A DNA stretch of 64,000 nucleotides, from the NCBI GenBank assembly GCA_010015805.1, contig ML978129.1, positions 620,001-684,000 on the forward strand, read 5' to 3'. Under the pieces are notes generated by a model. That model was not told where the DNA came from and searched no databases. It saw nothing but the letters and a program-made list of their open reading frames with translations. The DNA is from Rhizodiscina lignyota (taxonomy: Eukaryota). The translations under genes and the position numbers were made by a program. How positions within the stretch are numbered: the stretch's first letter is position 1; every line of letters begins with the position of its first letter. Shown here in pieces: positions 54,117 to 62,024 of the stretch.

Positions 54117-55550
54117 TTACATGTCATCTTCATCGCTGCTTCCATCGTGAATCATCCCACCAAATCCATCTCTCTCCGCTCCGATTAACGGTGCCCTCTC
54201 GCCCTCTGTTCTGGCAAAATGGCTCCAAACACTAATTGCAAGTGTCGAGAGTCCATGCACGATAATCGATCCTAGCACCACGAAGCAAATCACAGGCCAA
54301 ACCATCTCTAACGCTCGCTGATTTCGCTCCGGTAATTTCCCGGGCAATGGCAGGTATGGCAAAGGTATCGATGTGCCTGTCTCCAGTTGAGCTCGTGCTT
54401 CAATTGCAAGAAACAGGGCGCCAACGCCCATGGGACCAAAATGCCCTGCAAAAAGAGCCTCGCGCCAGGTGCGGAGGTCGGACATAAGTGGCTTCAGAGC
54501 AAGGACGACCGGTATGCGGCGGAAGGCCAGGACGAGAAGCAGCAATACAAAGAGCCTTGCAGTTGTAAGGCCGGCAAGTCTTGACTCTGAGTCCGCACTT
54601 TCAAATGACGACCAAGGGATGCTGGCGCCAAAGTAGACAAACATGGTAGAGTTGAGCAGCAAGTCGACGACGTTGCCCAGACTGCTCTCTGCAGTCTTGG
54701 CCGAGAACCAGCCATCGTGAGCGAAGCTTGCACCTGCGGCGAAAGCGACAAGGAAGTCATCGATGCCAAGCGTGCTTGCGACTCCGATGCAGAAGATGGC
54801 CAGGAGCAGGTAGAAGACTAGGTATGTTGGAGGTGCAATAAGTTGCCGCCGATTGGAGAACTTGAGGAGCCAGTTGGCTGCACGGCCGATTACCACCCCA
54901 AGGAAAGTTCCAAAGACGCATTGCCATAGGATGGTGATCAGAAACCACTTCTTCAGTGTTCCGGTAAAAGTGCTCCTCTGAAGTATTGAAAGGCCGATGT
55001 AGAGGAAGGGAAAAGAGGTTCCATCATTGCACCCAGACTCTGCGGAAAGCATGTTCTTGATATGTCGTGGTATTCGCTCAGAGAAAACTGAGTTCCCAAG
55101 GACGCTAGACGCCAGTACCGGATCGGTAGGTGTGAGGCAGGCTGATATCACCAACGCGGTTTCAAAGCTGCAGTTGAACAGTAGGTATATGAAGAGCCCG
55201 CAAATAAGCCAACTGTACGCCATGACTGGGCCAATGAGCACTGCAACACTTTTCCAATGCTGTCTGAAATACTTCTTCGGGAGCTCAGCTCCGATTGCAA
55301 AGCACTGCACACCAACCACGACGCGAGTGATTTCTTGAATGACATTGTCGCCGAGGCCCCATTCTGCTGGCGTAACAACTCCTGCAGCTCGGGGGCCAAG
55401 GATGATGCCAGCCAGTGTAGCGAGTGGAGGTTCGGCAATATGGAGTCTGTTGCGGATGAAAAGAGAGAATAAAGCATATATTATGAGGAACGTCGAAAGG
55501 ACCAGGTAGCTCAGGTGAGGCGCAGTGGGTTCTATCTGATCCCACGCCAT
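54117..55550 (-). CDS. CPA1 Na+/H+ antiporter (Nha1/Sod2-like)
   Basis: Many TM segments; TPTDPVLAS, AESGCNDG, LGIDDFL, FRRIP, GHFGPMGVGA, IVHGLS. Confidence 0.93.
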   Translation of the reverse strand: MAWDQIEPTAPHLSYLVLSTFLIIYALFSLFIRNRLHIAEPPLATLAGIILGPRAAGVVTPAEWGLGDNVIQEITRVVVGVQCFAIGAELPKKYFRQHWKSVAVLIGPVMAYSWLICGLFIYLLFNCSFETALVISACLTPTDPVLASSVLGNSVFSERIPRHIKNMLSAESGCNDGTSFPFLYIGLSILQRSTFTGTLKKWFLITILWQCVFGTFLGVVIGRAANWLLKFSNRRQLIAPPTYLVFYLLLAIFCIGVASTLGIDDFLVAFAAGASFAHDGWFSAKTAESSLGNVVDLLLNSTMFVYFGASIPWSSFESADSESRLAGLTTARLFVLLLLVLAFRRIPVVLALKPLMSDLRTWREALFAGHFGPMGVGALFLAIEARAQLETGTSIPLPYLPLPGKLPERNQRALEMVWPVICFVVLGSIIVHGLSTLAISVWSHFARTEGERAPLIGAERDGFGGMIHDGSSDEDDM

Positions 55551-58004: not shown

Positions 58005-59011
58005 ACTTAGATTTCGCTGAAGAATCTTGACTGAAGAGTGAGTTGCAAGAGCAGAATGGATGAAGATTGAATTGGAAATGACAACGTTGTGAATATTATG
58101 GATTTATATATTAATAAGTATGCAAGAAAAGCTCCGCTCGCCGATCCCAATGATCTGGAAATATCAGCGAGTTATTGAGACACTGATGAACTTTGGAACT
58201 GGTTCCGGAAATTGGCGCATCTAGTCACAGGAAGAACAGAGGAATCAGATTCGATGGTCTTCACGCTGATAAGCTCGGTTGCACGTAGGACTGATGAGCG
58301 GAACGTTCACTGAAAGGACTCGAATGACGCGAGTAGGCACTATACAGGTGCATAGCGGTAGTGTATTGACTGTAGATGGAGTTGGATCCCGTAGATCCCG
58401 GTAATACGATCCGCAGTCGGCGTTGACATTGTTCTCCGGTCTTGTCTGGAGAAGTCTCAGTTATTCGCGCAGAGTTGAACATTCCCGGGTAACTATGTGT
58501 CACAGATGCTGCTGGTCTGATTTATTTCGGATCGGCATCGGTGCGCTCTGACGCAGGGACCCGAACCTTTGAACGCATTACGAAAATCAAGATGCATTCT
58601 TCGAATCACAGCAGGCTTAAATTTTTGAGTCCGTAGAATTCGAACAGCTCGTGCCGGAATGAGCCGCGACCGATCGTAGAGTGGCGCAAGATTGGAGGAG
58701 GGGTGGCTTGAGGAATTTGAGTAGAAGCTTTTTCCCAAGAGTCACAGAATATTCCGAGCTATCAAGATCGCGCAAAGATTCCACGAGAGCCGAATTACTA
58801 CCCTGGACAAAGCACAGATCCCGTCGGAAGATTCGGTGTGCGCTGTACGTATAGATTTGTAGACACGACATCGACGCAAGACTTCGCGTTGTGCGTTGTG
58901 GCTTTCGATAGCTCCATTTGGACGTTGTGTATACCGTACCGAATCTATTGCAAAGTCAAGTGAAAAATGTGTATGGTCCTATCGTTGGCAGGCCACGCAG
59001 AAAGCAACTCC

Positions 59012-60412
59012 TCATATTGTGCTGGCAAAGTACAACTTCTTGCGCCCTTGTAACGCAGCATCCACCGTGTCCACAACGTTCTTGGCGAAAGCGGTGTCCA
59101 AGAAAGCTACGCCCAATTCCTGGCTTGTGTAAAAGCTTGCGCGGTCTAAGTTTCCACTCCCAAGAACCACCCATTGATTATCCACGATAGTAAGCTTGAG
59201 ATGGGACTGAATGGGTTCCGCAATACCCCGGCCAGATCGAGGTGTGTAGTATTCAATCCGCAGCTGGCCCAAAGATCGTAGCCCAGCTTCTTCATCTCTT
59301 GAATTTGCTTGAACAAGGAAACGCTTGTACCTGCGTATGAGTCCCTTGAGGCATTGGGTCGTCGTGGTACCCGCCGTAACAAGTTGTTCGAGTATCATCA
59401 ATCGTTCGCTGGTGACGATGTGGACATCAACACCGCGTTGAAGGGCGTCGAGGAGGCCAGAGAGTACAGGCGGAGCAGTTACATTCGGTGTCTGGATGTA
59501 TATTGTTGTTGTAGCAGAAGAGAGCAATGTGACAAGGAACACATTGAGAGGCGTTGCTGGAGGCGCCATCGCCCTTTGCCACGGAAACGGACGGAAACAC
59601 GGGTTTCGATGATGTGGAGATGGAAGGAAGACAGATAGAACGCCTCTGCCAATCATTGCAGGTCTGTCCTCATTGAGGTGAGATTGCATGTGCTCAGCTT
59701 GACTTTCCGAAGGAAATGTGCCCCCGTGAGGGAGCCAGAAGGATGACCAGAAGTCGACAAATTTTGCCACGATGGGACCAGCTAGCCTAACGCAACCCTC
59801 GAACCACGTCTCCCAACTAACATTGCAGCTGGGAAGAAAAACGGTTTTCCTATCCACGATGATGAACTTGGGGTGCATGACGGAGAAAGGCAGGAAAAAC
59901 ATGCTTTTCACCGTCAGGTCGAGTCCGTTGAGTTCCGTAGGCGAAGGTAAACCAAGCTTAGACTGCCATTCCGAAGGCCTGTAGGTATAACCATTTGTAG
60001 AAGAAGTATGAAACAGCTTTTGGAGTAGAGACACAGACGACAAACCAATAAATACCTTGATTCTTGGTTTACCCTCTTGCACTACTCGACTAGATAACTT
60101 CTGCAAGCTGCTGTTCAGCCGATCCCTGGATGATGATCTGGCCCAAAAACATGTCACAATGACAAGCTCTGACTCCGCTCGTTCGACCTCAGGTAATACC
60201 GACTGAAAAATCTCGTCGCCGGATCCGAGGATGAGCGGATCAGGAATTGAATTGGAAACGAGGACATCTGGGTTCTTGTAGAAGTAGTTTGGATGTTCTC
60301 GTAATTTCGGAAGCATTATGCCTTCCTTCCATTTCTCGAGAAAGGTAGCGGTTGAGCTTGGCATGGCTTGGTACTGTGCCGCTGCAATCTGCACAAGAGG
60401 CGAAGAAGACAT
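59012..60412 (-). CDS. Phospholipase D superfamily protein with two HKD motifs
   Basis: HPKFIIVD and HLKLTIVD...GSGNLD; IYIQTPN; 466-aa ORF starting 1 nt after the TFB5 stop. Confidence 0.9.
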   Translation of the reverse strand: MSSSPLVQIAAAQYQAMPSSTATFLEKWKEGIMLPKLREHPNYFYKNPDVLVSNSIPDPLILGSGDEIFQSVLPEVERAESELVIVTCFWARSSSRDRLNSSLQKLSSRVVQEGKPRIKVFIGLSSVSLLQKLFHTSSTNGYTYRPSEWQSKLGLPSPTELNGLDLTVKSMFFLPFSVMHPKFIIVDRKTVFLPSCNVSWETWFEGCVRLAGPIVAKFVDFWSSFWLPHGGTFPSESQAEHMQSHLNEDRPAMIGRGVLSVFLPSPHHRNPCFRPFPWQRAMAPPATPLNVFLVTLLSSATTTIYIQTPNVTAPPVLSGLLDALQRGVDVHIVTSERLMILEQLVTAGTTTTQCLKGLIRRYKRFLVQANSRDEEAGLRSLGQLRIEYYTPRSGRGIAEPIQSHLKLTIVDNQWVVLGSGNLDRASFYTSQELGVAFLDTAFAKNVVDTVDAALQGRKKLYFASTI

Positions 60413-60446
60413 CTCAGTCCGAGCCGGATTCTTCGGCTTCCCTCAC
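60389..60446 (-). other. Candidate facultative 58-nt intron joining TFB5 in frame to the PLD ORF
   Basis: Minus strand ACT|GTGAGG...ACTGAG...tcttcttcgcctcttgtgCAG|ATT; phase 0 at both ends. Confidence 0.6.
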
Positions 60447-60754
60447 AGTGTCTTTGAGGGCCTCTTTCAGCTTGATCTTTAGTTCCGCCAGTTTGCTCTC
60501 CTTGATGATAACGGCTTCGTCGTCGAGATCCTCAAGAATGAACTCGTGATACTGAGAGTCGATTTTGTTGATGATGGCCTTGATAGACGCATCACACTGG
60601 ATGAGCACACCTGGTAACACCATGTCAGCGACGGTTTCATAATCTTTGACGTTGAACGAAGCGTCTGCTAAGCCTCAGTCAAGCTACATGAGAAGCAGCG
60701 CGTGGATGTCGCGTTCTCACGTGGCGATCACGTACCCTTAACTGCCTTCACCAT
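60414..60754 (-). CDS. TFB5: TFIIH subunit Tfb5/p8 (71 aa)
   Basis: MVKAVK/GVLIQCDASIKAIINKID...FILEDLDDEAVIIKE; exons 60736-60754 and 60414-60610. Confidence 0.93.
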
Positions 60755-61178
60755 TTTGACATTTAGAGTGCAGGGTTGACGGGGCCGTGGATCTATTTGT
60801 GTCTCAGATAGCGATATCAAAACCTTTTCCAGACGAATGTGAGAAGATAGGCAGAGGAGGATTGCACATGTAAGAAGTTTATTATTGGGCGTGATGTCGA
60901 CTCCGTTAAACGACAGGCTCGCGTAGGGGTTCGCCAGGCCGTTTTGGGTCTAGGCTTACACATCGAGCCCGAACGCTCACCTCATGCGACGGCGTTCAAC
61001 TTAATGTCCATAAAGAACCACTCACACTCAAATGTTCAATTCTCCCCGCTTCAAGCTGGGCTTTATTAGCAGACTCTCTTCATCATAATGGAGCCAAATT
61101 TCATCCAGAATTTCTGGTGACCGCTCTTACCGATCCTTCCGCTCCTTTCACTTCTCCCACTCGCGTGCCATACCACCA

Positions 61179-62024
61179 ATGCACCGAGTAACCCGTTCAC
61201 GATCCCCACGGGGCCCTCTTCAAGCATATTCGAGCTTCGTCCACTTCGTTCTTTTGTTCTTAATGTCATCAAGCATGTCGCTGGCACAAGATTCAACGAG
61301 CGCCACTTCAACAACTACCTCCCGTTCCTCCATCACTTCGACCGACGCCTCAGCATCAATCACCCCAACTTCGAGCTTTCGGTTGCACAGCACGCTCCTG
61401 ACATCGACTTCAGCTTCGAATTCATCCAGCGCGCCTCTTCAAACTGATCCGCCGCGACCCGGCTTCCCAGGCGATGACTCTCCCGCCGGCACACTCCCTG
61501 AAGACTCGGAACATTCCTCTGGCTTGCTCAATTACTATTTCGCCTTCCTTGCCGTCTTTGTCATCCTCCTGTTCCTTGCAATATGGTACATCCACCGACG
61601 AAAGAAGAAGTTAAAAGCCATGCGTGCTTCTGGTCGGACGAATGCTCTGGCTCGAGATTTGGATGGGTGGACCGGCAGTAGAAGATGGATGGGAGGCGCT
61701 TGGAGGGGTGGTATTGGCAGGCGAGACATTCGGACTGAAGATAGAGAGGAAGGGTTGAACGAACTGGGAGAAGCACCGCCCCCCTACAAAGCACGAGATT
61801 CGGTCATAGGGGGTGACCGACGGTCAGGAGAAAGGACTGAGAATAGTCTGACTGTCCCATTACGAGCCTTGGATAGAGATGGTAGGGCAGTCATGAAGCC
61901 TCCAGACTATCACGAGACGGTACGCGAACTTCCAGAGAGCCAAGCAGAAGCAGCAGAATCGAGTCGAGCGAACCCCTCCTCTAGCCAAAGGACTGCAGAG
62001 TCTCCTCAAGAAAATGAAAGATGA
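61179..62024 (+). CDS. Single-pass membrane protein with Ser/Thr-rich ectodomain and cytosolic PY motifs
   Basis: Signal-like N-terminus, S/T-rich region, TM YYFAFLAVFVILLFLAIWYI followed by RRKKK, EGLNELGEAPPPY and PPDY. Confidence 0.8.
   Translation: MHRVTRSRSPRGPLQAYSSFVHFVLLFLMSSSMSLAQDSTSATSTTTSRSSITSTDASASITPTSSFRLHSTLLTSTSASNSSSAPLQTDPPRPGFPGDDSPAGTLPEDSEHSSGLLNYYFAFLAVFVILLFLAIWYIHRRKKKLKAMRASGRTNALARDLDGWTGSRRWMGGAWRGGIGRRDIRTEDREEGLNELGEAPPPYKARDSVIGGDRRSGERTENSLTVPLRALDRDGRAVMKPPDYHETVRELPESQAEAAESSRANPSSSQRTAESPQENER

Follow-up and report, generated by a model that had tools for sequence, protein, structure and literature searches.

TFB5 and a phospholipase D superfamily gene lie one nucleotide apart in Rhizodiscina lignyota and may form a dicistron-like unit

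Results

TFB5 and the PLD gene share a strand with a single base between them

In a 64,000-nucleotide (nt) stretch of the Rhizodiscina lignyota genome (GenBank assembly GCA_010015805.1, contig ML978129.1, positions 620,001 to 684,000 of the forward strand; hereafter the window), TFB5, the gene for the smallest subunit of TFIIH, lies directly upstream of an open reading frame (ORF) for a protein of the phospholipase D superfamily with two HKD motifs, referred to below as PLD. A re-reading of the sequence confirmed every minus-strand position that a preliminary description of the locus had given for this arrangement, in which the TFB5 stop codon, one G and the PLD ATG follow one another. It likewise confirmed the reading frame: counted from TFB5, PLD is shifted by +1, exactly at the stop (GAC-UGA-G). 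The preliminary description had also maintained that the genes leave no room for a terminator or a promoter, and this holds: neither can fit between them because stop and start are 1 nt apart. Elsewhere in the window, ORFs of at least 150 amino acids (aa) are mostly separated by hundreds of bases or more. The TFB5-PLD locus is unusual and, since a terminator and a promoter have no room between the genes, its anatomy demands some unusual solution. The features of the locus are listed in Table 1.

The region upstream of TFB5 is the only space without an ORF of at least 150 aa that is open to a promoter for TFB5 (and for PLD, if the two genes are co-transcribed), and it is likely to contain the TFB5 promoter.

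Table 1. Features of the TFB5-PLD locus (window positions).
Feature	Position	Strand	Description	Remarks
TFB5 exon 1	60736..60754	-	ATG at 60754; 19 nt; MVKAVK plus the first base of a Gly codon	N-terminus MVKAVKG-VLIQCD as in orthologues, e.g. P0127
TFB5 intron 1	60611..60735	-	125 nt; GTACGT ... GCTGACA (14 nt from the end) ... CAG; canonical	
TFB5 exon 2 and Tfb5 domain	60414..60610	-	197 nt; ends GAC TGA, stop 60416-60414	Pfam PF06331
Single-G spacer	60413	-	Separates the stop codon of TFB5 from the first PLD ATG	
Candidate frame-preserving intron, predicted only	60389..60446	-	58 nt; GTGAGG ... CTGAG (A at 60414) ... CAG	
Two-HKD PLD-superfamily ORF	59012..60412	-	466 aa, single exon; ATG 60412-60410	
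ORF-free region, putative promoter	60755..61178		About 420 nt; from the TFB5 ATG to a divergent + strand ORF (61179-62024)	

The Tfb5 protein is complete and conserved

Tfb5 matches its Pfam model with 71.1 bits (cut-off 23.5; E value 7.5e-20; profile positions 5-66 of 67). The 71-aa spliced protein can be aligned along its full length with named Tfb5 proteins from Dothideomycetes at 65-72% identity and 100% coverage, and it has all the expected features of its orthologues, namely the N-terminal motif KG[AV]L[VI]QCD, the acidic C-terminal tail and a size of ~70 aa. This tail, DTVREAEESGSD, is nearly invariant among the relatives, in which the stop codon follows ...EESGSD at the same place. The 71-aa protein is most probably the splice product, as the N-termini of the orthologues suggest; proteins such as P0127 (MVKAVKGALVECD) support the acceptor at 60611 and the 71-aa product over an alternative acceptor at 60665. 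Exon 2 contains one out-of-frame ATG (60592-60590), and no further ATG is seen from there down to the PLD start.

The alternative 3' site of intron 1, at 60665, gives rise to a public model of 89 aa (P0122), which is labelled Rhizodiscina lignyota. In this model, 18 additional residues, DASFNVKDYETVADMVLP, separate MVKAVK from GVLIQCD, and the translation of 60662-60414 matches the model letter for letter.

Several other Dothideomycete TFB5 genes (P0136, P0139 and P0142-P0146) appear, from their sequences, to be interrupted by a second intron directly behind ...LKE/LAD. Gene calls that treat these genes as plain ORFs enter that intron and then end or diverge; for P0139, 17 in-frame residues are read through before ...ELKDTVREAEESGSD. 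The second intron is absent in the window, where its site would be at ~60462, some five codons before the candidate donor listed in Table 1. In addition, P0149, which is 483 aa long and bears the name 'type I restriction enzyme, S subunit', shares a 90%-identity cluster with a 53-aa Tfb5 fragment (P0143), which is probably a clustering oddity.

PLD is an intact member of a large family of PLD-fold proteins

The PLD ORF matches the Pfam model PLDc_2 with 77.5 bits (cut-off 27; E value 1.1e-21), and its second match is to the HKD motif model, PLDc. The two HKD motifs are complete (H180/K182/D187 and H404/K406/D411) and are invariant or near-invariant in an alignment of 31 family sequences, every invariant column of which is retained in the window protein. 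The family consists of proteins of 440-490 aa, with at least 1517 matches at E ≤ 0.001; among the matches listed, the best-scoring named relatives are mostly Dothideomycete. The gene looks largely intron-free in this family, because most tblastn matches cover a length of DNA close to what the residues they match would require.

An AlphaFold (AF2) model of PLD has a predicted local distance difference test (pLDDT) score of 81.7 and a predicted template modelling (pTM) score of 0.86, with a pLDDT of about 92 for an N-terminal helix at residues 19-32. In a Foldseek search, the model matched Streptomyces PLD (2ze4; E 1e-19, template modelling score about 0.58) and, further, phosphatidylserine synthase and the PLD3/PLD4 exonucleases. 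Profile matches to solved chains are distant (Nuc 1byr, 1.5e-8 over 54 residues; Streptomyces PLD, about 4e-4), and identity to any solved chain is just 13-17%. PLD reached none of the curated family cut-offs except those of the generic PLDc_2 and PLDc Pfam models; the DrmC profile, for instance, scored 47.6 bits against a cut-off of 133. PLD appears, from its model, to resemble the known two-HKD enzymes (Streptomyces PLD, phosphatidylserine synthase, the PLD3/PLD4 5' exonucleases and the Nuc endonuclease) in its paired HKD motifs and its monomeric fold of two lobes. It differs from them in its low identity to solved chains and in meeting only generic Pfam cut-offs. Its lipid-enzyme and nuclease matches are about equally distant.

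Two methionines are possible starts, M1 (60412) and M17 (60364), which are 1 or 49 nt past the TFB5 stop. A public model of 434 aa (P0001) begins instead at M33 (60316), and that start, within the region 60314-60412, removes both a conserved tryptophan (W28) and the helix at residues 19-32. The real start is more likely M1 or M17 than M33, because the relatives conserve W28 and the helix upstream of M33. The relatives begin at a Met of their own, roughly 14-24 residues ahead of the conserved Trp. Judged from their sequences and from the PLD model, Tfb5 and PLD look functional as separate entities.

One relative of PLD, 46% identical, was found on a 12.5-kb contig of a bin labelled Acidobacteria (L081:3001-3982), which may be a misbinned eukaryotic contig. 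No PLD relatives were found in viral contigs.

A 58-nt segment across the junction has the form of an intron

The preliminary description had proposed that the junction has the form of an intron, and each element of that form is present: a donor at 60446 after the codon ACT, a CTGA built from GAC-TGA, a pyrimidine-rich stretch and a CAG at 60391-60389, spanning 58 nt with phase 0 on both sides. Removal of the segment would join ...ALKDT to IAAAQYQAMPSS. A GT-AG pair that fuses the two frames is, as such, unremarkable at this junction: the nine GT dinucleotides of exon 2 and 13 AG dinucleotides near the PLD start yield 28 frame-compatible pairs, of which 27 are stop-free. Among the exon-2 GTs, only that at 60446 has a GTRAG core, and this candidate donor coincides with the Val-Arg codons of the conserved Tfb5 tail.

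The chance of such a segment was estimated by resampling, in 20000 trials that held both proteins and the 1-nt spacing fixed and redrew codons among their synonyms, together with the stop codon and the base of the spacer. The pattern sought, a frame-preserving GTRAG..CTRA(8-35 nt)..YAG segment of 45-100 nt across the junction, arose in 4.8% of these synonymous resamplings, a figure that is a lower bound on chance as the pattern was defined post hoc, after the candidate had been seen. The figure is suggestive and falls short of being decisive.

For comparison, intron statistics were drawn from the 64-kb window alone. Its probable real introns measure 44-70 nt, with donors that include GTAAGC, GTAAGT, GTGAGT, GTGAGA, GTACGT and GTAAGG, and with CTRAY branch sites that lie mostly 9-17 nt from the intron end; a few of these sites resemble CTGAG or CTGAA. 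The 58-nt segment passes the same ORF-joining filter as these introns and, going by sequence features, fits them except for the distance of its branch A, which is 25 nt from the 3' end. Within the ORFs of at least 300 aa in the window (20.5 kb in total), only 1 GTRAG..CTRA(8-35)..YAG segment of 45-100 nt was found, compared with 7.0 ± 3.5 in codon-shuffled sequences and 8 on the antisense strand. This depletion fits a picture in which cryptic splice signals in exons are selected against.

Two further attempts were set aside. An ORF-joining screen for training introns in the window and 80 loci of PLD relatives gave 14041 candidates, mostly noise, which conditioning on a branch motif did not rescue, and it was dropped. 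Skipping of exon 2, from the donor at 60735 to the acceptor at 60389, was rejected since PLD would be out of frame.

Relatives of Tfb5 and PLD occur on contigs of equal size

In three cases, one of the closest Tfb5 relatives and one of the closer PLD relatives are recorded on short contigs whose sizes agree exactly, namely: P0126 and P0003 (2313 nt, both from Logan); P0143 and P0058 (1941 nt, both from JGI); and P0124 and P0013 (4284 nt, from ENA and JGI). From the local density of contig sizes, 0.14 such coincidences were expected against the 3 observed (P about 4e-4). By arithmetic, the 1941-nt and 2313-nt contigs leave at most about 270 and 730 nt, respectively, outside the two ORFs, and with so little DNA left over, Tfb5 and PLD would be immediate neighbours on both. 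At the protein level, P0126 keeps Val-Arg at the position of the candidate donor. P0124, a Tfb5 87% identical to that of the window, has Ile-Arg there in place of Val-Arg, so that lineage cannot have a GT at the donor position.

Fused proteins were sought in two ways. No Tfb5-containing protein of 126-2000 aa was found at E ≤ 0.001, and an exhaustive HMMER search over 1.84 billion representative sequences returned 412 Tfb5 matches, the best 150 of which are 50-208 aa long, none of them of fusion length. The fused Tfb5-PLD architecture envisaged in the preliminary description is therefore absent from both the length-restricted search and the best 150 of the 412 matches. The missing fused models are weak evidence, however, because gene callers would rarely predict such an isoform.

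Discussion

A dicistron-like unit as the favoured interpretation

The interpretation that we tentatively favour, and that we hold to be possible rather than probable, is that two separate proteins are made from one read-through, dicistron-like TFB5-PLD unit. In the lineage of the window, TFB5 and PLD, each of them conserved in its own right, have come to lie head to tail, 1 nt apart. Transcription that begins at the promoter region of TFB5 (60755-61178) would continue into PLD, and TFB5 would be the short cistron at the 5' end of a dicistron-like mRNA. Early 3'-end formation inside PLD could yield a shorter form with TFB5 alone, and PLD itself may be made as its own protein, from M1 or M17, through re-initiation after the 71-codon TFB5 ORF. 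The co-transcription, the alternative 3' ends and the re-initiation are all steps that we infer.

There are precedents for TFB5 as one of two ORFs on an mRNA. In Chlamydomonas, the REX1 transcript encodes REX1-S, a homologue of TFB5, and REX1-B, and the locus is conserved in four green algae (PMC7896298). As in the window, the ORF of the TFB5 family is the smaller of the two; the partner in Chlamydomonas is REX1-B, with no PLD-fold enzyme involved, and the algal transcript has been shown experimentally, whereas co-transcription in the window is predicted. The lineages are unrelated, and any likeness would be convergent. In Drosophila, Tfb5 (Dmp8) and Dmp18 come from a bicistronic transcript (PMC9514664), so that Tfb5 again shares one mRNA with an unrelated second protein. 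There, the partner is a subunit of a chromatin remodeller, of the Znhit1 type, and the fly case is experimental while that of the window is conjectural.

A further parallel is the glpks3-glnrps7 pair of Glarea lozoyensis, described as one transcript with a 26-bp spacer that contains neither a poly(A) signal nor an internal start (PMC4471562). A 9-bp spacer derived from this operon, IGG6, allows re-initiation in yeasts and in Aspergillus nidulans (PMC10352335). Both loci belong to filamentous ascomycetes and consist of same-strand ORFs with a very short spacer devoid of poly(A) signal or promoter, and the second ORF of the Glarea operon is translated by re-initiation, as is predicted for PLD. 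They differ in the spacer, which measures 26 bp in Glarea (9 bp in the optimised form) and 1 nt in the window, and in the kind of gene, secondary metabolism against a subunit of TFIIH. A literature search on TFB5 together with phospholipase D found nothing relevant, only one unrelated plant paper.

If co-transcription were true, green algae and Drosophila would be joined by a third independent case in which the small ORF of an mRNA for two genes encodes the smallest TFIIH subunit. The locus would also be a natural dicistron with a short spacer in a filamentous ascomycete, and one that has no part in secondary metabolism. Such a case would further suggest a predisposition of very short conserved ORFs, TFB5 among them, to capture downstream genes.

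Several observations weigh against a dicistron-like unit. Only one public run matched window positions 58900-60900, a DNA contig identical to the window, and no RNA run was among the matches. By the fungal Kozak rule, the start context of TFB5 (caaaATGg) looks strong, and leaky scanning to PLD is for that reason unlikely. The 161 nt of RNA around the junction do not fold unusually well (z = -0.39; of 200 shuffled sequences, 69 fold equally well or better). Among the loci compared, which comprise 80 metagenome loci of PLD relatives, all at most 53% identical to the window PLD, and L081 from a prokaryote genome collection, tblastn detected the Tfb5 exon in none (0/81), although the thresholds were as permissive as E = 50 (metagenome loci) and E = 10 (L081); the upstream DNA beyond the projected PLD start exceeded 500 nt in 56 of the 80 loci and 3500 nt in 33. 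The conserved TFB5-PLD adjacency that the preliminary description had proposed to look for thus did not emerge from these 81 loci, all at or below that level of identity. Furthermore, the Tfb5 and PLD records of Sphaceloma murrayae are on contigs that differ in size, and on the contigs compared the linkage is not general in the class. It seems to recur in three other lineages, a reading taken from matching contig sizes, which carry neither orientation nor spacing. As to mechanism, a stop codon abutting the second ORF without a spacer gave no downstream protein in yeast (PMC10352335). A survey by deep long reads describes polycistronic transcripts for Agaricomycetes and none for the ascomycete Neurospora crassa (PMC4503453); in a long-read paper on Rosellinia, such transcripts come up in the reference list alone.

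Other explanations of the junction

The two genes could also be overlapping separate units, each with a monocistronic mRNA: PLD would start inside TFB5, in intron 1 or exon 2, and TFB5 would be polyadenylated within the PLD coding region. An internal start with overlap is the default for tightly packed tandem genes, and the public models are indeed two separate genes (P0122 and P0001). The failure to find fusion-length Tfb5 proteins agrees with separate units, as does the run without an ATG from 60592-60590 down to the PLD ATG, which could serve as a clean 5' leader. Such an arrangement, however, needs a core promoter inside a conserved coding exon of 197 nt or an intron of 125 nt, in the same direction of transcription; it would probably invite transcriptional interference, and it leaves the implied tight linkage in other lineages unexplained unless expression is coupled. 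We consider it somewhat unlikely, and have ranked the dicistron-like unit over an internal PLD start because tight linkage apparently persists elsewhere and because TFB5 recurs in two-ORF mRNAs. Were the PLD start nevertheless to lie inside TFB5, the locus would be an extreme yet ordinary case of gene packing.

A spliced fusion, the proposal of the preliminary description, would arise if 60446-60389 were removed from a fraction of read-through transcripts, giving Tfb5(1-61)-PLD(9-466), with normal Tfb5 from transcripts that retain the segment. Read-through ('conjoined') fusion transcripts can splice out an upstream stop codon, and the GT-AG segment of the window likewise spans the stop and keeps the frame; the window differs from them in that neither a fused protein model nor, at the protein level, a donor conserved across the relatives was found. 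The segment has a GTGAG donor core, a CTGA branch-like site and a CAG 3' end; its length, 58 nt, is typical, its phase is 0 at either end, and it passes the filter that the probable window introns pass, some of which have GTRAGG donors or CTGAG/CTGAA branch-like sites. The depletion of such segments in the long ORFs of the window and their low frequency at the resampled junction also speak for splicing, and a fusion would allow cap-dependent translation of PLD without re-initiation. On the other hand, the pattern tested was chosen after the candidate had been seen, and the branch A is farther from the 3' end than is usual in the window. Splicing would cost Tfb5 a tail, VREAEESGSD, that hardly varies among relatives and whose own Val-Arg codons form the donor; P0124, whose contig equals that of the PLD protein P0013 in size, has Ile there and hence no GT. 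All PLD relatives begin with their own Met, no Tfb5 protein above 208 aa is among the best 150 of the 412 representatives, and the search of 126-2000 aa was empty. On balance, a spliced fusion is unlikely. We find it equally doubtful that a dual-output TFB5-PLD unit, whose fusion product would bring a PLD-fold phosphodiesterase to TFIIH via the Tfb5-Tfb2 interface, is maintained in a small group of Dothideomycete lineages. A fusion of this kind, if true, would physically tie an uncharacterised fungal PLD-fold phosphodiesterase to the machinery of nucleotide excision repair and transcription, and would open a direct way to learn what a widespread, unstudied enzyme family does.

Antizyme is a known case of a frameshift at a stop codon, and PLD lies in the +1 frame exactly at the TFB5 stop, so a programmed +1 shift at GAC-UGA-G could fuse full-length Tfb5 to PLD. 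A stimulatory RNA structure is not evident from the fold around the junction, no shift-prone heptamer is present among the motifs considered, and fusion-length Tfb5 proteins were missing from both searches; such a shift is thus very improbable. Rather more credible, though still improbable, is that PLD is unexpressed in this arrangement, or that the juxtaposition is an artefact of assembly or deletion. The only run containing the stretch is probably the assembly's own source, which leaves room for an artefact, but its contig aligned to the region without differences from the window, and the 466-aa ORF is intact, with the family-invariant residues, both HKD motifs and a confidently predicted fold.

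Synteny around PLD

A 477-aa ORF at window positions 54117-55550 on the minus strand has homologues of 51-55% identity beside PLD in 9 of the 80 relatives' loci, in varying orientation. Upstream of TFB5, the window has nothing in common with these loci. From the shared 477-aa neighbour and the absence of anything shared upstream of TFB5, synteny appears to be retained only on the side downstream of PLD.

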